DNA of 64,000 nucleotides from a virus: IMG/VR virus record IMGVR_UViG_3300009551_000004; one strand, written 5' to 3'. Under the pieces are notes generated by a model. It saw only the letters and a program-made list of their open reading frames with translations, had not been told where the DNA came from and made no database searches. A program made the translations under genes and the position numbers. How positions within the stretch are numbered: the stretch's first letter is position 1; every line of letters begins with the position of its first letter. Shown piece after piece: positions 18,081 to 53,569 of this stretch.

Positions 18081-18265
18081 CAGCCCAGTCCCTTCACGAT
18101 CATGCGCGCCGAGGCGACAAACCAGTCCAGATTTGGCACGGAACGCTGTGCGGTCAGATCCTCCGCCACGGTGCGGAGATTCGCGGCGGCTGCCGGCTCG
18201 TTTTTCAGCAGTGCCGCCGCTTCGTGCAACAACGCGACCTTGTCGGCGCGGTCGGCCGGCGTCAC
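18080..18265 (-). CDS. Small paralog family B protein (tandem copy 7)
   Basis: GTG start after GAAGGAG; GTGA overlap; DKVALLHEAAALL..VPNLD..ASARMIV. Confidence 0.6.
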   Translation of the reverse strand: MTPADRADKVALLHEAAALLKNEPAAAANLRTVAEDLTAQRSVPNLDWFVASARMIVKGLG

Positions 18266-18453
18266 TGTTCGGACTCCTTCACGGTCTCGCGCGCGTCGGC
18301 GAGGATGCTCTCCAGATCGGCGACGTCCCGGTTGGCGTCGAGGTCGTTCGCGGCGTCGTGGAACACCGCGCCCACCCACGAGTTGCCACTCAGTGCCGTG
18401 GCCTTGCGCAACAGGGCCACGTTCTCGGCGCGCTCTTTGTCCTCGGCATTCAT
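18262..18453 (-). CDS. Small paralog family B protein (tandem copy 6)
   Basis: ENVALLRKATAL...DLESILADARETV. Confidence 0.7.
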   Translation of the reverse strand: MNAEDKERAENVALLRKATALSGNSWVGAVFHDAANDLDANRDVADLESILADARETVKESEQ

Positions 18454-18665
18454 CGGTTCTCCCCATGCGCGTCGATGATGCGTTGCGCGACCACCAGCAG
18501 CGGATCGATATCGAGCGGCACGTCATGGGATTCCATGAACATCGCGGCGGTCACCAGATTTCCGTGCATGACCTGATCGGAAATATCCATGCCCAGCGGG
18601 CCGGCGTCATCCTCCACGATCTTCGCGGCCTTTCGCAGCAATGCCACCTGCTCGTCGCGGGTCAC
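18450..18665 (-). CDS. Small paralog family B protein (tandem copy 5)
   Basis: EQVALLRKAAKIV...LLVVAQRIIDAH. Confidence 0.7.
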   Translation of the reverse strand: MTRDEQVALLRKAAKIVEDDAGPLGMDISDQVMHGNLVTAAMFMESHDVPLDIDPLLVVAQRIIDAHGENR

Positions 18666-18880
18666 GACTTCTTTCCCTTCCCCAGGATCTCGATGAGTTT
18701 GCGCGCTTGCACCCGCCGGTCATCGAGGTTCGGCACCGAGCGGCCCGCTTCCAGGTCATTCGCGATGTCGCGCAGGGAAACGACCAACGCGACATCGTCA
18801 TCGTGCATGCCGGCCGGATCGGCAGCGGCGGATTCCACCGCGTTCGCGGCGGCGTAGAAAAGAGCGGCGTCGCCGCTCAC
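18662..18880 (-). CDS. Small paralog family B protein (tandem copy 4)
   Basis: ..LRDIANDLEAGRSVPNLDDRRVQARKLIEIL. Confidence 0.7.
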   Translation of the reverse strand: MSGDAALFYAAANAVESAAADPAGMHDDDVALVVSLRDIANDLEAGRSVPNLDDRRVQARKLIEILGKGKKS

Positions 18881-19086
18881 TGCGCCTCCATCACTCTGAC
18901 GAGTATCTGGGCCAGAATGAGGGTCTGTCCGATGCCCGGAACGGGGTGACCGGCTCGCAACTCCTTCGCGAGCTTGGTCAGGCTATCCGCCAGGAGGACA
19001 TCGGATGCGCGATCTGATGTCGGGTCCGTATCGGCGTACAGCAAATGCGCGGCGCGTTCCAGGATTGCGACCTCTTCCTCGCTCAC
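18877..19086 (-). CDS. Small paralog family B protein (tandem copy 3)
   Basis: EEVAILERAAHLL...LAKELRAGHPVPGIGQTLILAQILV. Confidence 0.7.
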   Translation of the reverse strand: MSEEEVAILERAAHLLYADTDPTSDRASDVLLADSLTKLAKELRAGHPVPGIGQTLILAQILVRVMEAQ

Positions 19087-19292
19087 AGTCGACCCTCCGA
19101 TCGCGCGTCGATGACGTCGCGGGCCGCGCTCAGAATGCCGGCCAGGCCCACCACGACACGGTCTTCCATCAGAGCGTTCGCCGTGGTCTGGAATGACGTG
19201 GCCAAGGCGATTTCATACAGGCGCGGTTCGACCAGGCCGCGCAGAATCGCGGTGGCCTCGCGCAGGATCTCGACCGAGTCGAAGATGGTCAC
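19083..19292 (-). CDS. Small paralog family B protein (tandem copy 2)
   Basis: SVEILREATAIL...GILSAARDVIDA. Confidence 0.7.
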   Translation of the reverse strand: MTIFDSVEILREATAILRGLVEPRLYEIALATSFQTTANALMEDRVVVGLAGILSAARDVIDARSEGRL

Positions 19293-19510
19293 TTCGCACC
19301 GCCGTGAACGGCGATGACCTGCCGGGCGATGTGCAGCTTGCCGGCCAGGTCCGTGATGGTCGCGCCGTTCGCCAGGGCGTCCGCAGCGGACCTGAGGCGT
19401 GCCACGAGTTCCATTTCCTCCAGGTCCAGGTCACGCAGGCCGGAGAGGGTCGTCGCGGCGTCGCGCAGGGTGGCGATGTCCCTGCCCTTTTCCGATTCCG
19501 AGTTCGTCAT
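19289..19510 (-). CDS. Small paralog family B protein (tandem copy 1)
   Basis: DIATLRDAATTL...DLAGKLHIARQVIAV. Confidence 0.7.
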   Translation of the reverse strand: MTNSESEKGRDIATLRDAATTLSGLRDLDLEEMELVARLRSAADALANGATITDLAGKLHIARQVIAVHGGAK

Positions 19511-19541
19511 GGCACGAACGTAGCGTAATGCCAGTGATGCG

Positions 19542-19733
19542 TCAATGGCGGGAGTCGGTGTGGCGTGCTTTTTGCAGCTCAGCCCACTCTTCGAGGGTCG
19601 GCAAGGAGTTCGGCGGGATGCGTGACGGGCGGGCGCGTACTTCGTGCCAGGTTTCCGAGGCCTGACGTCGGCGTTCTGGGGTCCAGGCAGCTTTCGCGGC
19701 GCGGGACAGGTGGGCTCGTTGCTCAGGAGTCAT
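19542..19733 (-). CDS. Small basic protein, first gene of the leftward block
   Basis: 63-aa ORF with no SD sequence; possibly a short-leader transcript. Confidence 0.55.
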   Translation of the reverse strand: MTPEQRAHLSRAAKAAWTPERRRQASETWHEVRARPSRIPPNSLPTLEEWAELQKARHTDSRH

Positions 19734-20071
19734 GGCTCGATAGTCGCATATCAGCGTCGGTCACGCAGCGGCCAAGACGACTGGTCACTTTCGATGCGTG
19801 CAGTCGGCACGGGCCGACCAGGAGCTGCACGGGCCGAGGGTTGGGCTCTGAGAGCGTCTCTGCGCCTCGAAAACGGCCTGGCAAGTACAACCTCCCTCGG
19901 AAGCGGAGAACGTGGCGCAGCGGGCCAACCAGGGGGCAGAACGGCGGCATGGCGGTCGAGGGGGGACCGGAGGCTTGTCGTGGGGCTCCCCAGATGCAGG
20001 TCGGGGCACGTTTCGGGGCTGGTAACCGGGGGTCGTCACTCTGCGTGCACCCCGAAAAGTGCTGCTCAGGG

Positions 20072-20112
20072 GTTGAGGAAGTTGAGGATGAGGGTGAAGG
20101 TGAGGGTGAAGT
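20072..20112. repeat. GTTGAGG x2 followed by a tandem TGAGGGTGAAGG x2
   Basis: Read directly; GTTGAGG is the inverse of the CTCAAC copies at 20217-20256. Confidence 0.8.
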
Positions 20113-20152
20113 GGGGCCACCCTCGGTGACCGAGAGTGACGAAAGTGGTAGT

Positions 20153-20208
20153 GGTTATATACGTATAGTATATCTTGATCTTGATAATAATCGAATTAGA
20201 CCTCCAAA
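20153..20208. other. AT-rich core between inverted repeat sets
   Basis: GGTTATATACGTATAGTATATCTTGATCTTGATAATAATCGAATTAGACC in an otherwise GC-rich genome. Confidence 0.7.
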
Positions 20209-20216
20209 ACCCCGGA

Positions 20217-20270
20217 CTCAACGCTCAACTTGGTGAGGGTGACCCTCGCCCTCAACTTGGGGGTGAGGGT
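20217..20270. repeat. CTCAAC x3 interleaved with TGAGGGTG x2 and the palindrome GAGGGTGACCCTC
   Basis: Read directly from the sequence. Confidence 0.8.
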
Positions 20271-20362
20271 GCTGGTTACCCTCGGCCTTTTCGTCGACAG
20301 AGGGTGAGATTCGGGGCCTGTGACTGGTTGGCCTCGATGCTCTTTCCCCCTTGTGCATGTGC

Positions 20363-20388
20363 GCGTACGCGTGCGTACGCGCGTACGC
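20363..20388. repeat. GCGTACGC x3 within an alternating purine-pyrimidine tract
   Basis: Copies at 20363-70, 20373-80 and 20381-88. Confidence 0.75.
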
Positions 20389-20567
20389 CCGACGGGGAGA
20401 GGCGAGGAGCGAGAGACGAGGAAACTTTGTCGGAACTTCTCGGCCCCCTAACGCGCCCGCGTCCGCGCGCATACAGGCACGCGGCGCGTGTGTCAAGGGG
20501 TGGGGAGCCAGAAGAAACGAGACGGTGCGTCTCGCCATGGGCTGGGTAGCCGTCGTATCCTGGAGCC

Positions 20568-21020
20568 GTGAGTGGTGGTGATGTGGCGGGAATCGAGCAG
20601 ATCGAGGCCATGTTGTATGTTGCGGGATTGAAGGATTGGGATTCCGTGAAAGCCATTCTGGATATGGTGGAAGAATATGCGAATACAAAAGATTCGCGTA
20701 TTCAGTTTATTCCCGTTAATAACGGTGCGTGCATTTGCGCGAAATTGCCGGATGAAGTACGCCGTCGCTTGTCCGCTCTCTATTCTGCGAAAGATTTTCC
20801 GCGAGAATCCGTGAAAGAGTGCTCGGAATGTAGATTGACATTGCCGAGATCTGAGTTCCATAAGAATCCTGGAACAAAGGATGGCAGACAATCTGCGTGC
20901 AAGGAATGTCGGAACAGAAGGCAACGGAAACTAAGAGTGGCGCGGCGATTGGCGCGAAGCGGGGCAATCATCGGAACGGATTGGTTTGATTCCGATGCGC
21001 CGTTCGACGACTTCGAGTAA
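20568..21020 (+). CDS. Hypothetical protein with C-terminal CxxC..F....DG....CxxC zinc-ribbon motif (moron-like)
   Basis: 150-aa ORF with GTG start; visibly AT-richer than its flanks; isolated rightward gene followed by two terminators. Confidence 0.65.
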   Translation: MSGGDVAGIEQIEAMLYVAGLKDWDSVKAILDMVEEYANTKDSRIQFIPVNNGACICAKLPDEVRRRLSALYSAKDFPRESVKECSECRLTLPRSEFHKNPGTKDGRQSACKECRNRRQRKLRVARRLARSGAIIGTDWFDSDAPFDDFE

Positions 21021-21041
21021 AGGAGGGTCACCCTCCTTTTT
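21020..21041 (+). terminator. Intrinsic terminator 1
   Basis: AAGGAGGGT-C-ACCCTCCTT followed by a T run. Confidence 0.8.
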
Positions 21042-21067
21042 ATTCGACCCCCAGGCCGTTATATGCT

Positions 21068-21091
21068 AAAGGAGGGTCACCCTCCTTTTTT
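21068..21091 (+). terminator. Intrinsic terminator 2 (duplicate of terminator 1)
   Basis: AAAGGAGGGTCACCCTCCTTTTTT. Confidence 0.8.
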
Positions 21092-21190
21092 ACTGGAGCG
21101 GGAGATCCCATTTGCTGGACATCATGCATGCTGCGGATCATTCGTAACCGTCATACATTCCCTGTTGTGGGCGATATGCGGCAGCCGTAA

Positions 21191-21431
21191 GGCGGCGTGG
21201 TGCTGGGAATAGCGGACTCAATGCAATGGCGTGTGACGGCGTGAGTGATACGCAGGGTGGCCTATGCGGCAGGGATTCGAGGCGGCGTGGGCGCTGAACT
21301 GCGGCGTTGCTGAGCGGCGAGTTTTCGGGGCCGCGATGGGTGAATGCCGATGCGGCGTGGTGGGGCAGTGGGGCGGCGGGATATTCGGCGGCACGGCGTG
21401 GGGTTTGGGGGTGTGGAGCGTGGCGGCGTGG
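21191..21431. repeat. Dispersed (G/T)GCGGCGTGG repeats in a G-rich noncoding stretch
   Basis: Copies at about 21191, 21281, 21351, 21392 and 21421. Confidence 0.6.
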
Positions 21432-21653
21432 TTTCTATTTGCCAAGCCTCGATGCCGTCACGCGCGACGCGCGCGTCATGCGATTGCCGAGTGGCGATGC
21501 GTCACGGTGACGAAAGCTCGACGCCGCGTCGAGGCCGGGCAGCTCTTGACCATCTATTTAAAATTCGAATCTCACCATTTGTTACTCGTCGTCAATCACT
21601 CATAAAAAATTTTTAAAAGGTGGTTCCCCGCGCGGGCGTGCGTGCGCCCTCCC

Positions 21654-21761
21654 TGTCCCATTTGTCCGTTACGTCTCTTCTGCGCTTCTTGTCCATGATG
21701 TCCACACAGTCCTAGATGTCCGTTTTGGTCGAAGTGTCCCCAATGTCCGATTTCCCTAGAC
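21654..21761. repeat. 9-bp-phased TGTCC array (about 12 units)
   Basis: TGTCC or one-off variants at 21654, 21663, 21672, 21681, 21690, 21699, 21708, 21717, 21726, 21735, 21744 and 21753. Confidence 0.85.
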
Positions 21762-21939
21762 ATACGTCTGTACACCTCCCCATCCGATCGTTGGATGGTA
21801 GGACGTCTGCTGAGCATGCGGCATTGCCACGCGGGCCCGCAGCAGGTCAGCCACGTAACGGCCGCACTGGGCCCTCATGTGGCCGCAGACGGCCGCAACC
21901 GCGTCTCCGGTGTGTTCGTACTGCCAGTGGCGCGTCATT

Positions 21940-21969
21940 GGTCTAGCACGCGCTCAGGGCCCGTGTAAA
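21940..21969 (-). promoter_or_regulatory. Leftward SigA-like promoter (TTTACA-18-TAGACC)
   Basis: GTGTTTACA family; points into the TGTCC array. Confidence 0.5.
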
Positions 21970-21985
21970 CACCCCCGATCGGCTC

Positions 21986-22014
21986 TGTACACACCGCGCC
22001 GCATGTGGTGTAAT
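21986..22014 (+). promoter_or_regulatory. Rightward promoter (TGTACA-17-TGTAAT)
   Basis: Located upstream of 22052..22252. Confidence 0.45.
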
Positions 22015-22051
22015 GAGCTTTCGTGGAATCGGAACAGGAAGGGGCAGAGCC

Positions 22052-22252
22052 ATGTTCGATGTCGAGGTGCGCCGCGCCGGTGGCTGGTCAGCCGTTGCGC
22101 CAGGCCTACCCAGCAGGCAGGAAGCGACCGACAACGCGGCCGAGGTGCGCCACGCCGAACGGCAACGACCGCAGGGAGCCACGTCGGTACGCGTGATGGG
22201 GCTGGATGGCAACGGCGTCCGCGTGCAACTCGGCGTGTGGAAGATCCGTTGA
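22052..22252 (+). CDS. Small hypothetical protein (66 aa)
   Basis: ATG after GGAACAGGAAGGGG; followed by a strong terminator. Confidence 0.6.
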   Translation: MFDVEVRRAGGWSAVAPGLPSRQEATDNAAEVRHAERQRPQGATSVRVMGLDGNGVRVQLGVWKIR

Positions 22253-22260
22253 ACGCCGAA

Positions 22261-22289
22261 ACGCCCCGCCGGATGATCCGGCGGGGCGT
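22261..22289. terminator. Bidirectional terminator
   Basis: 12-bp stem ACGCCCCGCCGG / CCGGCGGGGCGT between convergent genes. Confidence 0.75.
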
Positions 22290-22302
22290 CGAGTGGTGCG
22301 GG

Positions 22303-22881
22303 TCAGTCCTTGTTGCACTCGCGGTGATCCATGGTCACGTGCTCAATCCAGTGGATCACGGGCAACGGGCGGCCGTCCGGCATGCTGACCGCATAGCCGG
22401 TCAGCGGGACGCGGGTCATGCGGTTCAGTTCGTTACTGGCGCGTTTCTGCGCTTCCTCGGCCGCGAGGTACGTCCGGCAGTGCTCACAGTCGTCGCGCAG
22501 CGGCATGTGGTCGCACGCGTCCCCGAGGTGTTCGAGCGTGCGGAACATGTCCGCCAACAGAACCTCGGCCGCGTCGTGCGCCGACGCAGTGCAGTACGGC
22601 GCGTTGTTCGGCGAGTAACCCGCGTCGTTGTACCCCACGTGCAGCCGCGCGACGATCGGCGTGTAACTCGTGTGCTCCGCGAGCCAGTCCCATCCGGCAT
22701 CGGTCGGCTCGTGCTCCCACTTGCGCGCGGCAGGGGTGAGCAGTTCGCGCCCGACCAGTGCGGCCGTGGTGCCGGTGGACGGGTACGCGTGCGTGACCTC
22801 GGGGCCGATGTCGCCCGTGGCGATACGGCCGTACAACTCCAGTGCCGCGCGCATGATGCCGGTGAGCTTGTGCGTGGTCAT
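22303..22881 (-). CDS. Hypothetical protein
   Basis: 192-aa ORF in the track. Confidence 0.75.
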   Translation of the reverse strand: MTTHKLTGIMRAALELYGRIATGDIGPEVTHAYPSTGTTAALVGRELLTPAARKWEHEPTDAGWDWLAEHTSYTPIVARLHVGYNDAGYSPNNAPYCTASAHDAAEVLLADMFRTLEHLGDACDHMPLRDDCEHCRTYLAAEEAQKRASNELNRMTRVPLTGYAVSMPDGRPLPVIHWIEHVTMDHRECNKD

Positions 22882-22959: not shown

Positions 22960-23133
22960 TCAGAGCATGCCGTCGGAGTACCAGGGTTCCTCGGCGTACG
23001 GACCGGTGCCGTTGCACGCGTCGCAGTCGTCGACACACTGGACGTTCCACGAGCGCCCCGGCTCGGTCTGGGCCATGGTGTGCCCGTTGGCCGCGCGGTA
23101 GGGGCGCTGCCAGTCCTCAAGTTCCGTGTTCAC
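22960..23133 (-). CDS. Small Cys-containing protein
   Basis: GTG start after GGAATCGGAAAGG. Confidence 0.55.
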   Translation of the reverse strand: MNTELEDWQRPYRAANGHTMAQTEPGRSWNVQCVDDCDACNGTGPYAEEPWYSDGML

Positions 23134-23174
23134 GGTGTCTGCCTTTCCGATTCCGCAACCTGACACAACACATC

Positions 23175-23193
23175 ATGTCCCATCGTGGGACAT
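23175..23193 (-). promoter_or_regulatory. Palindromic operator module, site 1
   Basis: ATGTCCCA-TCG-TGGGACAT with -10-like TATGAT immediately upstream in gene orientation. Confidence 0.65.
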
Positions 23194-23218
23194 CATACAG
23201 CCGCCAAATGGGTGAATG

Positions 23219-23512
23219 TCAGTCGGTGAATTCGTAGCCGATGACCAGCGACCCGCAACGGCCGTAGCTGACGATTTCGCCGCGCGTGAGGGTTCGCTCA
23301 AGCCTGCGCACGGACTCGCCACCATCGCGGAGCAGTGCGGCCAGTCCGGCCGCGTAGTCCTCATGGCCACCCGCGTACGCCATCACCAGACCCTCAAACA
23401 CCCGCTCCGCACGCGCGAACCGTTCCGGGCTGTACGGCTCACGGTTCGCGATCATCATCGCCTTGTACGCCCGGTCGACCAGCGTGGCCAATTCCGCAGT
23501 GGTGGCAACCAT
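23219..23512 (-). CDS. Hypothetical protein
   Basis: Start MVATTAELA after ACGGAAACGGGAG. Confidence 0.65.
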   Translation of the reverse strand: MVATTAELATLVDRAYKAMMIANREPYSPERFARAERVFEGLVMAYAGGHEDYAAGLAALLRDGGESVRRLERTLTRGEIVSYGRCGSLVIGYEFTD

Positions 23513-23536
23513 CGTGATCACTCCCGTTTCCGTCGT

Positions 23537-23575
23537 CCGTGGCGTGGGTCCGACCCCCATCGGACCCCACCATGG
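23537..23575 (-). repeat. G5-loop hairpin family, copy B
   Basis: CCGTGGCGTGGGTCCGA-CCCCCA-TCGGACCCCACCATGG. Confidence 0.7.
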
Positions 23576-23587
23576 GCGACGGAACGG

Positions 23588-23824
23588 TTAGCCGAGGTAG
23601 GCCGATGCCGCGCGACCGTGGAATTGCACGGCGTCTGCCTCGGCCGAGGTCAGCGCGCGCACACTGCCCTTGGCGACGCACGGCGTGTACCCGGTCCGGT
23701 CCATGGTGACGCTCACGCCGTTGCCGGGCACGCACTCGCGCACGGTGGCCGATTCCCAGTAGCGCGGACCGGCCGTGTCGTCGAGGTGCACCATGACCAC
23801 GTCACCCGCGCGAAAGTCCTGCAT
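23588..23824 (-). CDS. Small hypothetical protein
   Basis: ATG (MQDFRAGD) after GGAAACGGAAACGGAA. Confidence 0.6.
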   Translation of the reverse strand: MQDFRAGDVVMVHLDDTAGPRYWESATVRECVPGNGVSVTMDRTGYTPCVAKGSVRALTSAEADAVQFHGRAASAYLG

Positions 23825-23866
23825 TCTGACCACCCATTCCGTTTCCGTTTCCGAACTGCGTCAAGC

Positions 23867-23885
23867 ATGTCCCATGGTGGGACAC
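23867..23885 (-). promoter_or_regulatory. Palindromic operator module, site 2
   Basis: ATGTCCCA-TGG-TGGGACAC. Confidence 0.65.
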
Positions 23886-23931
23886 CGCACAGCCGCCAAA
23901 CGGGTGAACCATGACGGTCCACCCGTTTGCG

Positions 23932-24396
23932 TCAGTCGTGGTACAGCCCTGCCACGGTCGTCTCGCCCGGCAGTGTGGTGTCTGGGCGGGCCCGGTCGCG
24001 CACAGTCGCCGGTACGTAGAGGTTCTGGCCCTCACGGCCCGTTTCGCGGCTCAGTGGCGTCACGTGGCGGCCCAGCCAGCGGCGCGCGCTCTCCTCGCCG
24101 ATGCCGCGCACTTTGGCCACGTGTGCGCACGCCTGGTCCGTTGTCCAGTACGGCTCATGGCGCGGTTCCGGCAGCGTCCACCCGTCAGTGATTTCCCGAT
24201 AGACGGTCGTCGCGCTGTCACCGCTCACGTGTTCCACCAACACCATGCCGCGATCGAAATTCGGGCCTTCTCGCTGGGCCAGTTCCTCGGCAATCGCGGC
24301 TTGCGCCGTCAACGCGTCGCGGTAGCGCGAATCGGTGACCGGCACACGGGCATGCCACACACCGAAACCGTCGGCCCACGTGCTGATCTCGGACAC
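23932..24396 (-). CDS. Hypothetical protein
   Basis: GTG start after AGTAGGGAGGAA. Confidence 0.7.
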   Translation of the reverse strand: MSEISTWADGFGVWHARVPVTDSRYRDALTAQAAIAEELAQREGPNFDRGMVLVEHVSGDSATTVYREITDGWTLPEPRHEPYWTTDQACAHVAKVRGIGEESARRWLGRHVTPLSRETGREGQNLYVPATVRDRARPDTTLPGETTVAGLYHD

Positions 24397-24405
24397 GATT
24401 CCTCC

Positions 24406-24723
24406 CTACTTGCTCACGCTGGCCAGCAGCACGGCCAGTCGACCATTGGCGAACGAGTCACCGTTGCCCAGTCCGGACGGGTTGACGCATCCACGCGCGT
24501 CGATTGTTCGCGCGCCGTGGATCATCACCTGTCCGTACACGTCACCCCAACGCGCGCAGTCCGCCGTCCACCCATCGGCCGCCGCGTCGGCGGCCGTCAA
24601 CGTGCGCGGCGTGCTGATCGTCGGATCGATGGCGGTCACGTGGCGGCCGTTCGACATGGCGCAGCCGGTGAACGCGACACAGCCGAGAATCACGCCGATC
24701 AAAGCACCCATGAGCGTGCGCAT
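24406..24723 (-). CDS. Putative lipoprotein
   Basis: MRTLMGALIGVILGCVAFTGC: signal peptide plus lipobox-like FTGC. Confidence 0.65.
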   Translation of the reverse strand: MRTLMGALIGVILGCVAFTGCAMSNGRHVTAIDPTISTPRTLTAADAAADGWTADCARWGDVYGQVMIHGARTIDARGCVNPSGLGNGDSFANGRLAVLLASVSK

Positions 24724-24770
24724 TGTGTGTTCTCCCTCGTTCCGTTTCCGTGTGTTGAACCGCGTCAAGC

Positions 24771-24789
24771 ATGTCCCAAGATGGGACAT
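24771..24789 (-). promoter_or_regulatory. Palindromic operator module, site 3
   Basis: ATGTCCCA-AGA-TGGGACAT. Confidence 0.65.
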
Positions 24790-24811
24790 CGGCATACCGC
24801 CGAATGGGCGA

Positions 24812-25132
24812 TCAGTACGTGAGCGTTTGAGAGTCGTAGCACGCGGCGTGCAGCGGCATCCGCTCATGACCACACCACAAGCCGAATTCCTCGGCACAGT
24901 TGCCGTAAATGCCCTCCCGTTCCTGCAATTCCTCGCTCACGGTCGCGTCTTCGCGATGCGGGTTGCCATCCTGCAAATCGGTGGGGCATATCCACGTCGG
25001 CACGCCGTCGTCACTGTCCATGACGGCCTTGTGGCACGCCGGACAATGGCCGATGCATCGGCCGCCGTTCTCATCGGCGGTCGGGCCCGCCATGTGCAGC
25101 ACGGCGCATGTGGTGATCAGCTTGGCGGTCAT
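24812..25132 (-). CDS. Cys-rich hypothetical protein
   Basis: Start MTAKLITTC after GGAAAGGA. Confidence 0.6.
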   Translation of the reverse strand: MTAKLITTCAVLHMAGPTADENGGRCIGHCPACHKAVMDSDDGVPTWICPTDLQDGNPHREDATVSEELQEREGIYGNCAEEFGLWCGHERMPLHAACYDSQTLTY

Positions 25133-25206
25133 GGCGCAATCCTTTCCGATCGAATATCCGTGATGGGGCCCGTCACACACGGGCCCGCTCATGGCGATTC
25201 GATCAG

Positions 25207-25605
25207 TCAGTCAAGCCACGTGAGCGTGGCGATTCGACCGGCCTTGGTGCGGGTGATCCGCGCGTGGCGGATGTCCTTCGTGATGTGATCCACGGTCCAT
25301 CCGTTCTCGACGTCGTACGCGCACGCGGCGTCGGACGACGTCACGAGCGTTTCGCCGTCCGCGAACAGCTTGAAGCGCGGATTGCCGCTCACACTGTTGT
25401 TCAGCCGCTCGTAACGGTGAACGGTGATGACGTCATCGGCCGCAGGCTCTGCGAAGCACGCCTCGCGGAAACGGTACGCGTCGAATCGCGAGGCGTCCGC
25501 TTTGAACATGGCGGAGAATTCGCGCGTCAACTCGTCACGGTTCTCGCCGCCGTACGCGTTGATGATCCGGGCAGCCTCGACGTAGTGCTTCTTTGACATT
25601 GCCAT
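25207..25605 (-). CDS. Hypothetical protein
   Basis: 132-aa ORF in the track. Confidence 0.7.
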   Translation of the reverse strand: MAMSKKHYVEAARIINAYGGENRDELTREFSAMFKADASRFDAYRFREACFAEPAADDVITVHRYERLNNSVSGNPRFKLFADGETLVTSSDAACAYDVENGWTVDHITKDIRHARITRTKAGRIATLTWLD

Positions 25606-25635
25606 GGTGAAAGCCTTTCATTCCGATTCGGGATT

Positions 25636-25672
25636 CCGTGGCCGCACGCGTCCCCCAACCGCGTGTGACCAT
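25636..25672 (-). repeat. G5-loop hairpin family, copy D
   Basis: CCGTGGCCGCACGCG-TCCCCCAAC-CGCGTGTGACCATG. Confidence 0.55.
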
Positions 25673-25683
25673 GAAACGACGAA

Positions 25684-25938
25684 TCAACCAACCTGACCGA
25701 CGGCGAGCGCCAACACGAGAACCGGAACGCCGTTGCGGTCGGTCGTCGCGATGAACTTGTCCGCCTCATAGCGGAAAGTGTCCGACGCGCCATCGCGGTA
25801 CACCCACTGAACCGCGATGAGGTTGTTTTCCGCGTCCACGCGGACAACGCTGCCGTCCAGGTCCTCCCACCGGTTCGGTGAGCCGTTGTACCCCGAGAGG
25901 TAGACGTGCATGCCCTTGGTGACGTCCAGCGTGCGCAT
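25684..25938 (-). CDS. Small hypothetical protein
   Basis: Start MRTLDVTKG after GGAAACGGAACGAGGA. Confidence 0.65.
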   Translation of the reverse strand: MRTLDVTKGMHVYLSGYNGSPNRWEDLDGSVVRVDAENNLIAVQWVYRDGASDTFRYEADKFIATTDRNGVPVLVLALAVGQVG

Positions 25939-25984
25939 GGTGTCCTCGTTCCGTTTCCGACTGTCAATCTGTTGTGCGCTCAGC

Positions 25985-26003
25985 ATGTCCCATCGTGGGA
26001 CAC
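25985..26003 (-). promoter_or_regulatory. Palindromic operator module, site 4
   Basis: ATGTCCCA-TCG-TGGGACAC. Confidence 0.65.
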
Positions 26004-26028
26004 TGTCATACCGCCAAACGGGTTAACC

Positions 26029-26391
26029 TCAGAGGTTCGTGAAGTACGCAGGCACCTCGACATATTCCGGCCACGTGCACTCATCCTCTGTGCACACCCG
26101 GTCGTCGATTCGGTCAATCTGGTCCGTTCCGTCTCCATGTGTGACGAGATCACCATATGCCCAGCAGTACTCGTGCCCGTTTGCGTCGCTATCGTTGGGC
26201 GTGTAGCCGATTTCGTACACCGTGTCGCCCAGATACCAGCGGTCACGTTTCTGGCAGACCTTTGCCCATTCCGGGGATATGTGTTCACGAATGGCAGCGG
26301 CAAGGCAGTCCGAGCCGTGCTTGTCGCTACACACGTAACGCACGGTGTGGGTCTGCCCTTCCGGCCCCCATGCAATATAGATCAGTCCCAT
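26029..26391 (-). CDS. Hypothetical protein
   Basis: Start MGLIYIAWG after GAAAGGAACG. Confidence 0.65.
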   Translation of the reverse strand: MGLIYIAWGPEGQTHTVRYVCSDKHGSDCLAAAIREHISPEWAKVCQKRDRWYLGDTVYEIGYTPNDSDANGHEYCWAYGDLVTHGDGTDQIDRIDDRVCTEDECTWPEYVEVPAYFTNL

Positions 26392-26407
26392 GATCGTTCC
26401 TTTCGCC

Positions 26408-26463
26408 GTCTCAGTGTCCGTGAAAGAGGGCCGTTTCCGGCCCCCCAACACGGTCACTGAGAC
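26408..26463 (-). repeat. G5-loop hairpin family, copy E (composite)
   Basis: Outer stem GTCTCAGTG / CACTGAGAC enclosing CCGTG..GGCCG..CGGCC-CCCCAA-CACGG. Confidence 0.55.
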
Positions 26464-26750
26464 GCACGCCGCCGATACCAGCCCTTGGCAAACGCCAGTG
26501 CGTTCTCAAGCTGTGTGAAGCCGCCCAACCGTTCCTCGTCATCCGGCGTCAATGCGAGGTCCGACCCGCGCACCTCGAACGTGGCCCAGTTGTCGACCGT
26601 CACGCGCTTCAGTTCGACGACCCGGATTCCGTCCACCATGAGCACCGCGTGATCCGCGTACTCTTTCCCGAACGGCGCGGTAGAAAGGTCGTTGCCGTTC
26701 TCCCACAGCAGCGTTTCGAATTCGATGTCATCCACTGCGCTTCCCCTCAC
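26454..26750 (-). CDS. Hypothetical protein
   Basis: 98-aa ORF; GTG start with GTGA overlap. Confidence 0.65.
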   Translation of the reverse strand: MRGSAVDDIEFETLLWENGNDLSTAPFGKEYADHAVLMVDGIRVVELKRVTVDNWATFEVRGSDLALTPDDEERLGGFTQLENALAFAKGWYRRRASQ

Positions 26751-26971
26751 CAGTCATAGTGGAGCACGGGCAGTCCGGCCGAAATGCCGGACACCTCGAC
26801 ACACGCGTTGGTGCATTCCTCGCACTCTCGCACGTGCGCCAACACGTGTTCCGGTTCAACATCCGGCACGCCGTTGCTCACGTGCGCGTCGGTGTCGAAC
26901 ATGAGAAACAATTCATCACATCCTACGGGCTCCCAAAACCGCCCATCGGACATGTCCCACTGCATACGCAT
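26747..26971 (-). CDS. Small hypothetical protein
   Basis: Start MRMQWDMSDG after GGAATCGGAAGGA. Confidence 0.6.
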   Translation of the reverse strand: MRMQWDMSDGRFWEPVGCDELFLMFDTDAHVSNGVPDVEPEHVLAHVRECEECTNACVEVSGISAGLPVLHYDW

Positions 26972-26997
26972 GGCGTCATCCTTCCGATTCCGGGTAT

Positions 26998-27036
26998 CCG
27001 TGGCGACACGCGGCCCCCGTCCGCGTATCACCATGG
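26998..27036 (-). repeat. G5-loop hairpin family, copy C
   Basis: CCGTGGCGACACGCGG-CCCCCGT-CCGCGTATCACCATGG. Confidence 0.65.
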
Positions 27037-27405
27037 TCACTCGGAATCGCGAAACGCGATCACCCATTCGTCATCGTAACCGGCAATCGTCGTCGCCACG
27101 TAGTACCCCGGATTGTCGAGGATGTGCTGCGCCAGATTACCGCCGATGAATTCCGACGGGTGCATGCACGGACCCCGGTAGTTGTACTGGCCGGTCCAAC
27201 CGCGTAGGAGCGTCCACCCGTCGCCGGACACGCGAACATCCTCCGCGCCGTCCGTGTGCGTGTTGTCGTACACCTCGGGAGCGTGCAGACCGCGCGGCTC
27301 ACTGACCGTCCCGTCGCCATGCGAGAGAATCACGTGGCCAATGCTCATGATGTTTTCGAGCGCGTAGGGATTCGAGCGGCTCAGATTGACCGTGATGCGT
27401 TCCAT
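27037..27405 (-). CDS. Hypothetical protein, paralog pair F
   Basis: Start MERITVNLS; shares GW..L.G....NPGYYV with the next gene. Confidence 0.65.
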   Translation of the reverse strand: MERITVNLSRSNPYALENIMSIGHVILSHGDGTVSEPRGLHAPEVYDNTHTDGAEDVRVSGDGWTLLRGWTGQYNYRGPCMHPSEFIGGNLAQHILDNPGYYVATTIAGYDDEWVIAFRDSE

Positions 27406-27422
27406 GTCGTCGCCTTTCCGGT

Positions 27423-27728
27423 TCAGACTGCCGGGTGGTACGCGACGACGAACGTGTTGCGCTTGACGTCCGGGTGGGGCAAGCGCACGTAGTAGCCCGG
27501 CGCGTTCATCATGTCGTACGCCACGCGGTTGCTGATCTCGTCCGTCGGGCCGCACAGCTGGGCCCATCCGCTGCCCAGAACGGCCACGTTGCCGTTTTGC
27601 TGCTCCACGGTCTCCACGTGGTCGAGCGTGCAATTGACCACGATGTCGACCAGCGGCCCGTCCAAGGTGTTCCACACCTCGATCACGCGGTAGTTCTGCA
27701 TCATGTTGCGGAGCGTGCTCGGCTTCAC
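27423..27728 (-). CDS. Hypothetical protein, paralog pair F
   Basis: GTG start after GGAAACGGAACGAGGGA. Confidence 0.6.
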   Translation of the reverse strand: MKPSTLRNMMQNYRVIEVWNTLDGPLVDIVVNCTLDHVETVEQQNGNVAVLGSGWAQLCGPTDEISNRVAYDMMNAPGYYVRLPHPDVKRNTFVVAYHPAV

Positions 27729-27774
27729 GTTGTCCCTCGTTCCGTTTCCGTGTCCTCTGTGGTGCCGGTCAAGC

Positions 27775-27793
27775 ATGTCCCACCGTGGGACAT
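27775..27793 (-). promoter_or_regulatory. Palindromic operator module, site 5
   Basis: ATGTCCCA-CCG-TGGGACAT. Confidence 0.65.
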
Positions 27794-27865
27794 GTGTCTA
27801 CCCCCAAACGAGTGACGCCGGTCACAGAACTTGCTGCCATGTTCCCCCGAACGGAGGTATGCACA

Positions 27866-27884
27866 GTGTCCCACTGTGGGACAT
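27866..27884 (+). promoter_or_regulatory. Palindromic operator module, site 6 (inverted, serves the rightward gene)
   Basis: GTGTCCCA-CTG-TGGGACAT, then GCTT..AACGGAAACGGAAAGGGG..ATG. Confidence 0.65.
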
Positions 27885-27923
27885 GCTTATGCGGCACGAC
27901 AACGGAAACGGAAAGGGGCGACC

Positions 27924-28292
27924 ATGCGAACCACGACCCTCGCGGATTACCTGATCTCGTTTTACGAGACCGACACCGTGGACAATCAGGGCGCACAGTG
28001 CCAGCACTGCCAGGAAATCGGCGCACTAATTACGCACAACGTCAGTTACGCGGGATGCGTCACCGGCGCGATCATGTCGGTGGAGTGTTGCGGCGGCTGC
28101 GCGTCGCGGATCATCCGCGCCAACGCGGACGAGACCTATCAGGTGATCGTGTTCTGGGTGCCGTTCTCCAACGTGCTCCGTGACATCGACGTGCCGTTCT
28201 CTCCCGCGTGGCTCGCCACGTACGAACTGGACATCGTGGATGACCGAATGAACAGCATCGATGACACGCGGCCCCATCCGGACGGCGAGTGA
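27924..28292 (+). CDS. Cys-rich hypothetical protein
   Basis: ATG after AACGGAAACGGAAAGGGG. Confidence 0.7.
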   Translation: MRTTTLADYLISFYETDTVDNQGAQCQHCQEIGALITHNVSYAGCVTGAIMSVECCGGCASRIIRANADETYQVIVFWVPFSNVLRDIDVPFSPAWLATYELDIVDDRMNSIDDTRPHPDGE

Positions 28293-28381
28293 CCACGATT
28301 GACACGGCCGTGCCGGTCACGCACCGACATGCGCCGCGCCAACCGGCGTTCACCATTCCGAATCGGAAAGAGGCACTGATC

Positions 28382-28489
28382 ATGGGTCGTCGTCGTCACC
28401 GTCGTCACTCACACCGCCACGGTGTGGGCCACGCGTTGCTGCGCATTGTGGAGCACATCCTCAGACACGCCGCGCGGGGCATGCGGTAA
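28382..28489 (+). CDS. Small Arg/His-rich peptide (35 aa)
   Basis: ATG after GGAAAGAGG; very short. Confidence 0.35.
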   Translation: MGRRRHRRHSHRHGVGHALLRIVEHILRHAARGMR

Positions 28490-28721
28490 ATCGTGCGTGT
28501 AGGCACACGCATTGCCAATCACACGTCATGCAATTCGCGCGTATTCCATTGTGTGAATTGCTAGACGAACCATCGTGGTAATGCGGCACGGTATGGGACG
28601 ACATCCATCCACACCGTGCCGCGTGCTGCCCGTGCTCGCTGGCCACACAGCGCCGAGGCCCTGTGCCCTGCCGTGTGCCTTGCCGGCCCTGTGCCATGGC
28701 GTACCGGCCCGGCAGGGCGTG

Positions 28722-28856
28722 GCCTTTGGTGGACACGCGCCATGGTGCGTGCCGCTGTGCTGCACGCTGCTGGGCCGGCAAGGGACGCGGTGCCCATGGC
28801 ATGCCTTTGGTGGACACCGTGCTGCACAGCTCGGCAGGGCGTGGCCTTTGGTGGAC
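28722..28856. repeat. GCCTTTGGTGGAC x3 (two copies extended to GGCAGGGCGTGGCCTTTGGTGGAC)
   Basis: Copies at 28722, 28803 and 28844. Confidence 0.8.
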
Positions 28857-29093
28857 GCATGCCCTGCTGCGTGTGTGTACGTACGTGTGTATCGTGCAGT
28901 GTGTACACACGTACGACATGGGCCGTGTGTCGCGACGCGCTCACAGAGCGTGCCTGCCCGTTGTGTCCGCTTCGCGAGCCTCGCCCGCGATGTCCGTTTT
29001 GCCCGCTCTGCACTATATGGGGCGCATTGCGGCGAACGGCACCACCGTTTAGATCCACCGCAAAATTCCTCGATCCAAAAACTTCGTTGAACG

Positions 29094-29144
29094 CTCAACT
29101 ACTTCGTGGCCTCAACCACTTCACGGCCTCAACTACGCCCTATA
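29094..29144. repeat. Three tandem 17-bp CTCAAC(T/C)AC.. iteron-like repeats
   Basis: CTCAAC at 29094, 29111 and 29128, exactly 17 bp apart. Confidence 0.8.
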
Positions 29145-29167
29145 CACCCCCGCCGTCACAAGGCACA

Positions 29168-29542
29168 ATGGCCACCATGACAGCCACGGGTGACTTCTAC
29201 GAAGACGACGAACCGCTCGACCACATTCTCGCCGCTCTTGAAGTCGGCAAAAGGGAGATCACAAAGCACGCGGATGATCCGACTAAAATCGTAGCCCCAT
29301 GGACTCCCGACACCGTTGACGCCCTGAACGCGTTTCAAGCCTGGGGCGTGATGCACCCCTTTACATGCGGCATCGATTCGACCCACGGCACTGGTAAGCT
29401 CCACGCCACCGAGCAGGGCTGGAAGTGCACGGATTCGGAATGCGACTACCGACAGAACTGGGCCCACGCCTTCATGGCCGATCGTGACTTCCCCGTGCGT
29501 GTCGAAGCGCAGTATCAACTGTTCCTGTCTTTGAGCGAGTAG
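29168..29542 (+). CDS. Hypothetical protein
   Basis: Real-looking C-terminal part of the 28616..29542 ORF; first ATG after the repeat block. Confidence 0.65.
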   Translation: MATMTATGDFYEDDEPLDHILAALEVGKREITKHADDPTKIVAPWTPDTVDALNAFQAWGVMHPFTCGIDSTHGTGKLHATEQGWKCTDSECDYRQNWAHAFMADRDFPVRVEAQYQLFLSLSE

Positions 29543-31091: not shown

Positions 31092-31186
31092 TTGGGAGTG
31101 CGTCGCCTCTGCCAATTGGGCTACCACACCACGAAGCTCGAAGAGGTGAGAGGTGTGGGAAGGGTTCGAACCTCCACTGAAACGCA
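31092..31186 (-). ncRNA. Permuted tRNA-like unit 1 (3' half 31186-31151, 20-nt linker, 5' half 31130-31092; anticodon loop CTCCCAA)
   Basis: The 3' half reads TGCGT-TTCAGT-GGAGG-TTCGAAC-CCTTC-CCACACC-T. The 5' half reads GGTGTGG-TA-GCCC-AATTGGCAG-AGGC-G-ACGCA-CTCCCAA. Confidence 0.55.
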
Positions 31187-31246
31187 CTGACGTTCAGGCT
31201 GAAACTCAAGTTCAGCTTGTGGTCAGGTACTACCTTATCACGTGCG

Positions 31247-46808: not shown

Positions 46809-48170
46809 TCAGTGACGCTGTCGGTAGTCCTGGATGATCTTGGCAACCTCTTCACGCACCTCGGCGTCACGAGCGGCCTTGGCCGTGTTGAGCAGGTGCT
46901 GCTCGTGATCTGCCCGTAGGTCATCCATGCCTTCGGTCTGCTGCGCTAGGTCACGAAACTCGTGAGCCTGAAGGGTTCGCTCCTGTGCCGAGGCGAGCGC
47001 TCGCGCTGCGGCCGTGTCCAGGTATGCGTCACGCGCTGCCTTGGGCAGCATATCCACGGTGGTCACGTTGCTGCTCCTTTTTCTTTGATCGGGAATTGGG
47101 AGAACTTTGTCCGGGTCCGACGTGGGCCATTGCGGCTCGCCCATGCGATGGTAGATCGGCGGCAACCTTTTCGCCTTGCGCACAACGGTAATGCGGGGCA
47201 GGTTATGCGCCCGAATCGGCTTGTAGTGGTCGAGATCCACATTCGGCCACGCAATGTCAGGTGTCTTTGATGCGGTCTTCACTGAATCCTCCGGTCGTGA
47301 CCTGGTTTCCGGCGCGACCGTCGGAGTATCCTTCTTGTCGCCCTTCTTTTTGGTCTTCGTTTTCGGTGGGTCAATCGCGTCAGGCTTTGATGTATCTGGA
47401 ATTTTGCCGGTCAACGGACGCGGCGGCCAGTTGTCCGGCACGCGCGGCCCGGACGTTCCGGCAATCATTCGCCGCTCCCGATTAGGACGCGGCCCCTGGT
47501 TGCCCGGGTTGACCAATGTCTGTGGTGTACGAACGCCTCGCGTCCGGTTGCCGTTCCCGCGCGGTCCCGCCGGAGCTTGAGACCGATCCTGCGACCAGCG
47601 ACGAGACCGCGTGCGACTGGCCGTCTCGCCAGGCTCAGTGGGCTGCGACCGGCGAGACCGACGCCGAGACGGCTGCTGGCCGTTGGTCTCACGGTCGCGA
47701 GACCGCTGACGAGACCATGGCCACCGCTTTGTGGGACCAGTCTCAGACTGCCGATCCTGCGCCGCACGGCGAGACCGAGATTGCGGGCTGCCCGGAGACT
47801 GCGACCGAGACTGAGACGGTCCCGTCGTGCCCCCCTGAGACCGGGTCGCACGATGCCTCTGCGCGGTCTCGGACTGGAAGAAGTGGCGCAACGCCAGGCC
47901 GAGACCAACGAGAATGGCGAGACCGCCAACCGCGATGACGGCCAGCAGCGGCGATTGCAGCCACAAAATCACGCCGCCGACCAGCACAATCGTCACGCCG
48001 AGCGCGGCCGACAGGTGCCAAGGCGGCACGCCGGTCGTCCTGGTCTCGGCCTTTGCCCTGGTCTCCGGCTTCGACGTCTTGGTCTCAGGCTTGGTCTCGG
48101 TCTCACCTTCGACGAGATCCGCAGGTGAAACTGGCTTTGCCGAGGCGAAAACCGTGTCCTCGTCGCTCAT
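46809..48170 (-). CDS. Membrane protein with Glu-Thr and Arg-Ser low-complexity tracts
   Basis: 453-aa ORF with one hydrophobic segment; carries most of the GGTCTC/GAGACC copies. Confidence 0.7.
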   Translation of the reverse strand: MSDEDTVFASAKPVSPADLVEGETETKPETKTSKPETRAKAETRTTGVPPWHLSAALGVTIVLVGGVILWLQSPLLAVIAVGGLAILVGLGLALRHFFQSETAQRHRATRSQGGTTGPSQSRSQSPGSPQSRSRRAAQDRQSETGPTKRWPWSRQRSRDRETNGQQPSRRRSRRSQPTEPGETASRTRSRRWSQDRSQAPAGPRGNGNRTRGVRTPQTLVNPGNQGPRPNRERRMIAGTSGPRVPDNWPPRPLTGKIPDTSKPDAIDPPKTKTKKKGDKKDTPTVAPETRSRPEDSVKTASKTPDIAWPNVDLDHYKPIRAHNLPRITVVRKAKRLPPIYHRMGEPQWPTSDPDKVLPIPDQRKRSSNVTTVDMLPKAARDAYLDTAAARALASAQERTLQAHEFRDLAQQTEGMDDLRADHEQHLLNTAKAARDAEVREEVAKIIQDYRQRH

Positions 48171-50869: not shown

Positions 50870-51046
50870 ATGAACGAGCCGAAGCCGCCTGAAGGATTTC
50901 CCGCCTTCACTTCCAGTCAGGTGGGGGCCATCGCCATGCATGAGTTTCTGGAGATGCTGATCGAAGCCGGATGGCCAGAAAGGCGGGCAATTCTGTACCT
51001 CGTCGAGTTGGGTGAGCGGACCAGGAGAGATGGAGAAGGGACCTAA
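50870..51046 (+). CDS. Small hypothetical protein (58 aa)
   Basis: ATG only 6 nt after a TACCGT -10-like box (possibly leaderless); below the track cutoff. Confidence 0.4.
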   Translation: MNEPKPPEGFPAFTSSQVGAIAMHEFLEMLIEAGWPERRAILYLVELGERTRRDGEGT

Positions 51047-51440
51047 ATCAGCAAAAAGGGGCGACCTTCTTACATCGTATCGTCCGAAATGGCGTGACGA
51101 TGTAGACAATGACGACTACATCGCCGCTTTGGATTTTTTGTCGCTGGTCATGGAATCGGATATTGCCGCAATTAGTGTCGATCAACTGCGCGACCAGAAC
51201 GTCATCATCAAACGTAAAGCCAAAGACCTTTTACGTGCCGCCCAGCTGCCCCTGCTCGGCAGAACCGACGAGTATGTCATGCCCGAATTGGTGAAGATCG
51301 CCACGGGGGTTCGACTCTCCCCCGTGCTTTATCTTCGCGGCAACAATGCGCGGCATGCTATTATTGCCGACGGGTACCACAGAATCTGTGCCGCACATCT
51401 GTGCGATCCCGGATGCGACGTACCCTTGAAAATCATCTAG
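51030..51440 (+). CDS. ParB-like N-terminal (nuclease/CTPase fold) domain protein
   Basis: PVLYLRGNNARHAIIADGYHRICAAHL matches the ParB-box DGxHR..AA pattern; an alternative GTG start lies at 51012. Confidence 0.6.
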   Translation: MEKGPKSAKRGDLLTSYRPKWRDDVDNDDYIAALDFLSLVMESDIAAISVDQLRDQNVIIKRKAKDLLRAAQLPLLGRTDEYVMPELVKIATGVRLSPVLYLRGNNARHAIIADGYHRICAAHLCDPGCDVPLKII

Positions 51441-53073: not shown

Positions 53074-53148
53074 GCCTTCCTGGCCCAAATGGCAGAGGCC
53101 GTTGATTCAAAATCAACGCAAGTCTGGGTTCGAGTCCCAGGGAGGGCA
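53074..53148 (+). tRNA. tRNA with anticodon CAA (Leu-type anticodon and D arm, but a short variable region)
   Basis: GCCTTCC-TG-GCCC-AAATGGCAG-AGGC-C-GTTGA-TTCAAAA-TCAAC-GCAAGT-CTGGG-TTCGAGT-CCCAG-GGAGGGC-A. Confidence 0.6.
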
Positions 53149-53272
53149 CGTAGTACCGTCATAACCTAGGACATTGACGGAGCACTACCCGCGTACCATA
53201 CGGTCGGCGAAAATACGAAGGTCGCTCCTTCTATCACGGTTTTCGCGGTTCCAGTCCCTGCTGCGCGGTCAG

Positions 53273-53343: not shown

Positions 53344-53355
53344 CAAGAATTACAT

Positions 53356-53560: not shown

Positions 53561-53569
53561 CTTAAGTAC

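Follow-up and report, generated by a model that had tools for sequence, protein, structure and literature searches.

The DNA analysed here, referred to as the window, is a 64,000-nucleotide stretch of IMG/VR virus record IMGVR_UViG_3300009551_000004, from an uncultured soil phage, with a GC content of 61%. It contains an array of phased TGTCC repeats in a 2.8-kb gap (19510–22303), a region of lower GC that is repeat-rich and devoid of genes with the phage's normal bias in GC content at third codon positions (GC3). The gap also holds a low-GC Zn-ribbon gene, two terminators and a plus-strand gene for a 66-residue protein; almost all genes between 1.8 and 50.7 kb are carried by the minus strand. 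The array and the features that bear on it directly are:

21654–21761, plus strand: main array, twelve head-to-tail 9-bp units, each a TGTCC core followed by an A/T-rich tail
21717–21731, plus strand: two-unit sub-site TGTCCGTTTTGGTCG, one base away from TGTCCGTTTTGCCCG, the dimer motif common with Streptomyces phages
21601–21620: A/T tract CATAAAAAATTTTTAAAAGG, 34 bp from the array
21568–21595, minus strand: candidate leftward promoter, weak and inferred, with −35 TTGACG (21595–21590), a 16-nt spacer and −10 GAGATT (21573–21568)

The exact pentamer TGTCC occurs on the plus strand at 21654, 21663, 21690, 21699, 21717, 21735 and 21744, with all spacings multiples of 9. These seven in-phase copies are the top recurrence of any 5-mer at periods 6–15 in the window, and twenty Markov shuffles of the window gave at most four in-phase copies for any 5-mer or period. 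Base autocorrelation of the array peaks at lags of 9, 18 and 27. The first-pass annotation of this DNA had described the units as TGTCC or a one-mismatch variant; the 9-bp phase is borne out, but only one of the five degenerate units (AGTCC) has a single mismatch, CGTCT, TGCGC and TGGTC having two each and TCCCT three. Because of these mismatch counts, the credible array consists of units 1–11 (21654–21752), and the degenerate unit 12 is to be dropped.

Variation is unevenly distributed within the units. Departures from the majority base affect 10 of the 60 cells at positions 1–5 and 30 of the 48 at positions 6–9 (Fisher p = 1e-6). Despite this variation the tail stays A/T-rich, with A or T at 35 of 44 spacer positions (80%) against 0.435 locally (p = 1e-6) and, at unit positions 7–9 alone, at 25 of 33 (p = 2e-4). 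Within the core, the conservation of TCC amounts to 0.7–0.9 bits. The uneven variation together with the preserved A/T tail suggests that the array is a DNA element under constraint, as opposed to a tandem duplication in neutral decay.

The A/T run that the earlier annotation had placed beside the array is present. Read on the minus strand, it looks like a putative UP element just upstream of the TTGACG hexamer of the candidate promoter. The array lies 61 nt from this candidate (TTGACG-16-GAGATT), occupying the region about 60–170 bp upstream of it. A consensus promoter scan of the window returned neither the candidate at 21568–21595 nor a leftward promoter that had been proposed at 21940–21969.

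Likeness to BldC sites and search for the binder

BldC of Streptomyces is a 68-residue MerR-like winged-helix protein that assembles cooperatively and head-to-tail on 9-bp direct repeats, each protomer taking up 9 bp; on a 36-mer of four repeats, four protomers are bound (PMC5859096). The natural minimal site at whiI is TGTGTCCGAATTGCTCGGATTG, and the optimised site, TGTCCGAATTGTCCGAATTG, is built of TGTCCGAAT units (PMC5859096). Arg30 contacts the G of a 5'-TpG step in bidentate fashion, Lys26 approaches guanines and the wing reads the narrowed minor groove of an A/T tract, where replacing AATT by GGCC abolishes binding (PMC5859096). By our reading of the numbering, the guanines approached by Lys26 pair with the CC of TGTCC. 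The filaments shorten and writhe the DNA and can extend over longer sites (PMC5859096). We checked the BldC sequence against PDB entries 6AMA and 6AMK.

The unit of the array is nearly the same as the optimised whiI unit TGTCCGAAT (PMC5859096). Eight of the twelve units agree with it at 6–8 of 9 positions and the other four at 3–5; close examples are TGTCCGATT, TGTCCGTTT, TGTCCCATT, TGTCCGTTA and TGTCCCCAA. An in-phase pyrimidine-G step is present in 10 of 12 units (TG in nine, CG in one), against a background of 0.18 (p = 2e-6). The natural whiI arrangement TGTCCGAAT-TGCTCGGAT is resembled by TGTCCGTTT-TGGTCG in the array (21717) and by TGTCCGTTT-TGCCCG at 28991, and TGTCCGTTTTGGTCG and TGTCCGTTTTGCCCG are comparable to whiI TGTCCGAATTGCTCG.

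Like the array, the BldC operators of whiI and smeA-sffA are made of 9-bp head-to-tail repeats with a fixed TpG and an A/T tract before the next TpG (PMC5859096, PMC6428758). The array thus combines 9-bp direct repeats, a fixed YpG, an A/T tract and likeness to sequences known to be bound. Judged by sequence, its period, core and A/T spacer jointly reproduce the published BldC recognition unit, a point the earlier annotation had overlooked. It differs from the Streptomyces operators in that it resides in a phage genome without a detectable BldC homologue, overlaps no recognisable promoter and is a predicted binding site only; its TGTCC core is also far better conserved than that of natural chromosomal BldC sites.

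Small winged-helix proteins that oligomerise head-to-tail on direct repeats are found in other phages, namely GIL01 gp1 (PMC11511902), D29 Gp36 (PMC12266134) and Xis of phage lambda, which forms a microfilament. These proteins are phage-encoded and regulate phage promoters. Their repeats differ from those of the array, an example being AGGCGGC-N13-AGGCGGC for D29 Gp36 (PMC12266134); the array matches the host-type BldC site, and in the parts of its phage searched no gene of this kind was detected.

No BldC, HTH_17 or MerR protein came to light in the window and the 8 kb to its left, about 72 kb of the genome of about 105 kb, whether by six-frame phmmer and hmmsearch, by hhalign with a BldC profile or in precomputed Pfam assignments. 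No DNA-binding domain was detected in the proteins neighbouring the array. The nearest of these, the 66-residue protein, was considered as binder and ruled out, as its predicted fold (β2-α-β2; predicted local distance difference test score 93) is not a winged helix; the predicted structure has no significant match in the PDB and no helix-turn-helix. The host's BldC orthologue is the likeliest binder, since the parts of the phage examined encode no homologue. Such orthologues are very abundant in soil data; the protein database gave at least 8000 candidates, and the matches listed share 81–100% identity with BldC, nearly all of them at least 91%.

A tblastn search with BldC found homologues in 282 actinophage records (phages of Microbacterium, Mycobacterium, Gordonia, Brevibacterium and Arthrobacter), with no Streptomyces phage among them. 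Efeko, Schnabeltier, AGM1 and MintFen, which encode BldC-like proteins, have no TGTCC arrays near those genes, and among the BldC-like-encoding actinophages examined only Giles has TGTCCGGGATGTCCG near the gene. In the gp47–cro gap of this mycobacteriophage (2187–2200 of locus L179), the intergenic sequence TGTCCGGGATGTCC forms a two-unit 9-bp repeat that continues as TGTCCG and adjoins the gene for the BldC-like Cro (40% identity).

Related sites in other phages and bacteria

Close and distant DNA searches of INPHARED with the array region gave no match except a weak one to Streptomyces phages, which became a lead. A synthetic BldC-like array matched 60 phage records, 35 of them from the Streptomyces BE cluster (Stanwilliamsviridae). 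None of the Streptomyces matches falls in an annotated protein of known function and most are in unannotated DNA; the remainder comprise one under a coding sequence labelled 'hypothetical protein' and a few in records without any annotation.

In the first 14 kb of phage NootNoot, TGTCCNWWWTG occurs ten times against 0.2 expected; for nine of these boxes, the leftward early genes lie on the other strand. Of five upstream regions, the four cleanest have boxes that end about 9–17 nt upstream of a −35-like hexamer, and the early promoters that follow read TAGACA/TTGnnn-N17-18 with −10 TAGACT or similar. Wakanda and BillNye also have TGTCCNWWWTG, which was not found in five non-Streptomyces actinophage loci nor in the rest of the window's phage; the literature searched holds no description of these boxes. 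The 15-mer ATGTCCGTTTTGCCC is present, among 542 loci, only in the window's phage (28990), in Wakanda and, twice, in NootNoot.

The boxes of the BE phages thus share with the array their motif, their orientation relative to leftward genes and an exact 15-mer, and in the BE phages, too, no BldC homologue was found, in their case by tblastn. They differ in arrangement, with two or three units near a −35-like hexamer or seven to eight units beside DnaA boxes, against the 11–12 units of the main array at 61 nt from a weak promoter. The occurrence of the same dimer motif in unrelated Streptomyces phages points to a shared trans-acting factor, probably derived from the host.

The window's copy of the 15-mer (28990–29004) is part of a second array, inside a gene-free, repeat-rich gap (28292–29168) with these features:

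28955–29017, plus strand: second, weaker array of seven 9-bp units, TGCCCGTTG TGTCCGCTT CGCGAGCCT CGCCCGCGA TGTCCGTTT TGCCCGCTC TGCACTATA
28722–28858, minus strand: three copies of GTGTCCACCAAAGGC, DnaA-box-like (7/9 to TTGTCCACA), which precede the second array on the plus strand

The DnaA-box-like copies read GCCTTTGGTGGAC(A/G)C at 28722, 28803 and 28844, their likeness to DnaA boxes being on the minus strand. In Wakanda and BillNye, arrays of seven to eight 9-bp units adjoin three or four perfect TTATCCACA DnaA boxes. These boxes are of the E. coli type and, at 2208–2495 of the BillNye locus (L152) and 2715–2995 of the Wakanda locus (L155), abut a TGTCCG array within a non-coding region of 1.4 kb. 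The box and array region of these two phages may be an origin that uses host DnaA. By analogy, the gap at 28292–29168, whose layout mirrors it, may be an origin-like region.

Arrays of related sequence were also noted in unrelated genomes. Four IMG/VR loci (L043, L057, L099 and L151) have 6–9 alternating 9-bp units, TGTCCGGAA or TGTCCGAAA with TGTCCGATT, the last unit being followed after about 13 nt by a strong −10 region, TGCTATAAT (TGGTATAAT in L099). In the flanks examined, a gene for a RinA/ArpU-like regulator is located upstream, and tRNAs, an HNH endonuclease and TerL downstream; these arrays look like a late-promoter activator site. Three bacterial contigs of 69–70% GC, two of them from Brevundimonas (L197 and L257), contain three tandem BldC-optimum units between genes: TGTCCGAAT three times in L197, and TGTCCGAAT TGTCCGAAT TGTCCGAAA in L257 and in the third contig, L296.

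A proposed BldC filament and its rivals

The explanation we prefer, to which we give about an even chance, is that the array serves as a platform of about 100 bp for a filament of a BldC-family protein, probably the host's BldC, with a regulatory or architectural role beside the weak leftward promoter. The phage would thereby recruit or soak up a BldC-type protein, most likely the host's own. The anatomy and statistics of the array, its agreement with the published site and its counterpart in Streptomyces phages are observed; the identity of the binder, its cooperativity on the array and the regulatory output are inferred, as follows. The double-stranded DNA would be covered by a filament in which small MerR-like, Xis-like winged-helix proteins of the BldC family follow one another head-to-tail, one on each 9-bp unit, to a total of about 11 protomers at most. 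An arginine of each protomer would contact the T-G step at unit positions 1–2, a lysine would touch the G-G pairing with the CC of TGTCC, and the wing would enter the narrowed minor groove formed by the A/T-rich positions 7–9 and the T of the next unit. The good units (1, 2, 5, 6, 8, 10 and 11) may nucleate binding, cooperative protein-protein contacts then carrying the filament over units 3, 4, 7 and 9, which are degenerate.

The likeliest output would be control of transcription between the palindrome-controlled early operon, which ends at 22303, and the next leftward block of genes. By analogy with the promoters of the BE phages, the GGACA strand would be the coding strand of the leftward unit, and the nearest leftward candidate is the UP-like A/T tract followed by TTGACG-16-GAGATT (21620–21568). 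The filament may activate or occlude this weak promoter (21595–21568). Alternatively, it may form a bent, shortened nucleoprotein block or stop read-through from the early operon; it may also titrate the bound protein.

A more specific proposal, which we think unlikely, is that the array is a decoy or sensor by which the phage deals with BldC as the developmental brake of its host. Each genome would contribute eleven near-optimal sites, a number that phage replication multiplies, and these would titrate BldC or gauge its level. This would tie phage gene expression to the choice of the host between growing vegetatively and sporulating, or actively disturb that choice; the boxes of two and three units at BE-phage early promoters would represent the everyday version of the same hijack of a host factor.

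BldC is a key brake on Streptomyces development whose chromosomal sites are too degenerate to predict. If a BldC filament does form on the array, what would be new is a phage with a long, near-optimal BldC-type array, together with boxes across a cultured lineage of Streptomyces phages; phages would wire their early programme to a developmental regulator of the host, or sponge it, and the array would offer a natural high-affinity substrate for studies of BldC filaments. If the binder is a different protein, the array still marks a strong regulatory or architectural element that had not been described before, in a phage that is otherwise unannotated.

Several observations weigh against a BldC filament. 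According to the authors who studied BldC, its sites are not bioinformatically predictable and their natural consensus is loose (PMC6428758), and natural operators have 2–4 repeats against the 11–12 units here. The TCC of the core is conserved beyond what the published contacts strictly need, so another protein that reads TGTCC could bind, for example the regulator of the six palindromes described below. No BldC-family protein is encoded in the part of the genome searched, and the host markers (TerL, Lsr2 and relatives among phages of Gordonia, Arthrobacter and Microbacterium) narrow the host only to Actinobacteria. The candidate promoter is weak and 61 nt away. The array can be compared only with copies more than 99.9% identical and with one relative whose contig ends before it. 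Arrays of 9-bp period with permuted or arbitrary cores are likewise abundant in viral contigs, and TGTCCNWWW arrays in many non-actinobacterial genomes flank unrelated housekeeping genes, without a BldC-like open reading frame nearby.

TGTCC arrays of 9-bp period are themselves numerous, with at least 119 loci in IMG/VR and at least 120 bacterial loci of many phyla. A widespread class of TGTCC arrays was at first assumed and then dropped, given the abundance of control cores and the unrelated bacterial neighbours; for the same reasons, the abundance of such arrays elsewhere is not evidence. Non-coding arrays are about 3–4 times commoner for TGTCC (24 of 119) than for control cores (15 of 240; p = 1e-4) among the IMG/VR arrays listed. 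Several of the IMG/VR arrays are upstream of terminase genes and others beside replication proteins or a ParA gene, making the set heterogeneous.

The first-pass annotation had taken the unit for a half-site of the operator palindromes found at the phage's early promoters. The six palindromes of the form ATGTCCCA-N3-TGGGACAT are present as reported (0.22 expected); they and the modules that contain them are:

23175, 23867, 24771, 25985, 27775 and 27866 (to 27884): six palindromes RTGTCCCA-N3-TGGGACAY, each in a conserved early promoter and 5' untranslated region module
23125–27944 and 21950–22057: seven such modules, TTCACCCGTTTGGCGG ... palindrome ... GCTTGAC ... ACGGAAACGGAA-ribosome-binding site; the one before the 66-residue gene (21950–22057) has no palindrome

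The array could accordingly be a sink, a reservoir or a cooperative loading site for the phage's own regulator of these operators, a reading we consider unlikely. The TGTCC core is identical, units 1, 10 and 11 match the half-site at 7 of 8 positions, the palindromes are just 1.4–6 kb away in the conserved modules, and the core is conserved more strictly than BldC contacts alone would need. The likeness ends with this 5-bp core, however: the A/T tail, significantly conserved in the array, is missing from the palindromes, and these consist of inverted half-sites whose centres are separated by 11 bp, instead of direct repeats every 9 bp, which implies a different binding geometry. Furthermore, no DNA-binding domain is apparent in the neighbouring proteins, and the dimer motif is also found in unrelated Streptomyces phages. 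A single binder for palindromes and array is possible but not indicated, and a titration-sink role of the array is likewise possible. An IMG/VR scan with the palindrome gave matches at chance level only. The element ACGGAAACGGAA, allowing up to two mismatches, has 35 copies against 6 expected, mostly just before minus-strand start codons.

The idea of a protein-binding platform made of non-coding direct repeats, also present in the earlier annotation, is supported; the two replicon functions attached to it, an iteron origin and a partition centromere, are not. That the array belongs to a replication origin, as initiator sites or as an architectural element beside an A/T-rich unwinding tract, seems rather improbable to us, although the A/T tract is only 34 bp away, the surrounding 2.8 kb are gene-poor, repeat-rich and low in GC, the similar arrays of BillNye and Wakanda abut TTATCCACA boxes and the second array follows three DnaA-box-like repeats. 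The 9-bp period is not helically phased and differs from the roughly 17–22 bp of iterons, there is no adjacent initiator gene, and the nearest replication genes, for Prim-Pol and a helicase, lie at a distance of over 20 kb. Across the window, DnaA boxes are no more frequent than expected by chance, the A/T tract is just 20 bp long, and GC skew, uninformative here, has no global extremum at the array. Reading the units themselves as a cluster of DnaA boxes, TT(G/A)TCCACA (TTGTCCACA), was tried and rejected: the core fits, but the ACA tail is poor, since among units 1–11 the A, C and A expected at positions 6–8 are present in just 2, 2 and 3, respectively, and ATGTCCACA is the sole fitting unit. 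A centromere of the parC, parS or parH type, from a plasmid or prophage, is very improbable. Centromeres of types Ib and II are typically arrays of short direct repeats to which small proteins bind, and one IMG/VR array (ATGTCCACG seven times, L085) is directly upstream of a ParA-like gene. In the window's phage, no ParA, ParM, ParB or ParR family member was found among 107 window proteins or at adjacent loci; the protein at 51030–51440 that had been called ParB-like corresponds to an open reading frame (51012–51440) without a Pfam match even at E ≤ 1, and the genome resembles those of large lytic phages. Ribbon-helix-helix proteins also bind cooperatively, in large numbers, to contiguous units of 7–8 bp (the omega heptads of pSM19035, ParG on parH of TP228, MetJ on metboxes). 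Those arrays differ from the one in the window in period, unit sequence and protein fold, and linkage to a par or met operon is absent here.

We regard as improbable that the array is a functionless, decaying tandem duplication of the kind seen in variable number tandem repeats. Arbitrary-core 9-bp arrays are indeed common in viral and bacterial DNA, but here substitutions are concentrated in the tail, the tail remains A/T-rich while its sequence varies, and the unit fits an experimentally defined protein site. Least probable of all is action through a gene product, either a Gly-His/Gln tripeptide-repeat protein (minus-strand open reading frame 21596–21817) or a transcript with protein-binding motifs. 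Both strands have open frames, and most 9-bp TGTCC arrays in IMG/VR lie within long open reading frames of repeat proteins. The GC3 of the minus-strand frame is 0.49, however, against 0.7–0.9 for real genes here, and among 1.84 billion representative proteins it matches only itself and low-complexity repeats. In units with an intact core GGA is the only Gly codon used, whereas the codon after it is for His or Gln, indicating that the DNA is conserved and not the peptide. Both strands fold worse than shuffles (z +0.95 and +1.37), with no Rfam match.

Neighbouring features of the phage genome

The window includes a tRNA cluster, genes for an Lsr2 homologue, RNA repair and TerL, and the C-terminal part of a Prim-Pol. 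The tRNA cluster and the genes for RNA repair give the genome the look of a large lytic phage; judging by Lsr2 and the closest phage relatives, the host is probably an actinobacterium. Several soil metagenomes contain near-identical copies, one of them the 104.8-kb contig ERZ27252311 k141_586430, which is circularly permuted relative to the window. The other features of the gap around the array are:

20568–21020, plus strand: low-GC gene for a Zn-ribbon protein of 150 residues, with an endonuclease VII/HNH-type N-terminal module (PHROGs)
21022–21041 and 21071–21091, plus strand: two identical terminators, GGAGGGTCACCCTCC followed by T5-6
22052–22252, plus strand: 66-residue gene, the conserved gene nearest to the array, with 76% identity in the sole relative found

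Searches with the 66-residue gene and with a 192-residue gene each found a single relative, whose contig stops short of the array. No phage relatives of the Zn-ribbon protein were found, and relatives of the RNA ligase in JGI metagenomes are not syntenic. The Zn-ribbon gene and the two strong terminators fall, together with an A/T-rich stretch, in an island of low GC (20150–21100, 47–54%) that looks like an inserted mobile gene. At 18262–19510, the minus strand has tandem paralogous small genes of 63–73 residues with the common N-terminal motif (V/I)A(L/I)LR(K/D)AA.

Further away, GAGAC is repeated in 6/12-bp phase at 47699–47800, with five in-phase copies, probably within a coding repeat. The tRNA cluster (53074–53766 and 54033–54131) comprises five tRNA genes (Leu, Asp, Phe, Lys and Met) and a tRNA match of 99 nt, made by Rfam only, which possibly has an insert; a separate tRNA-Ser is located at 31150–31239.

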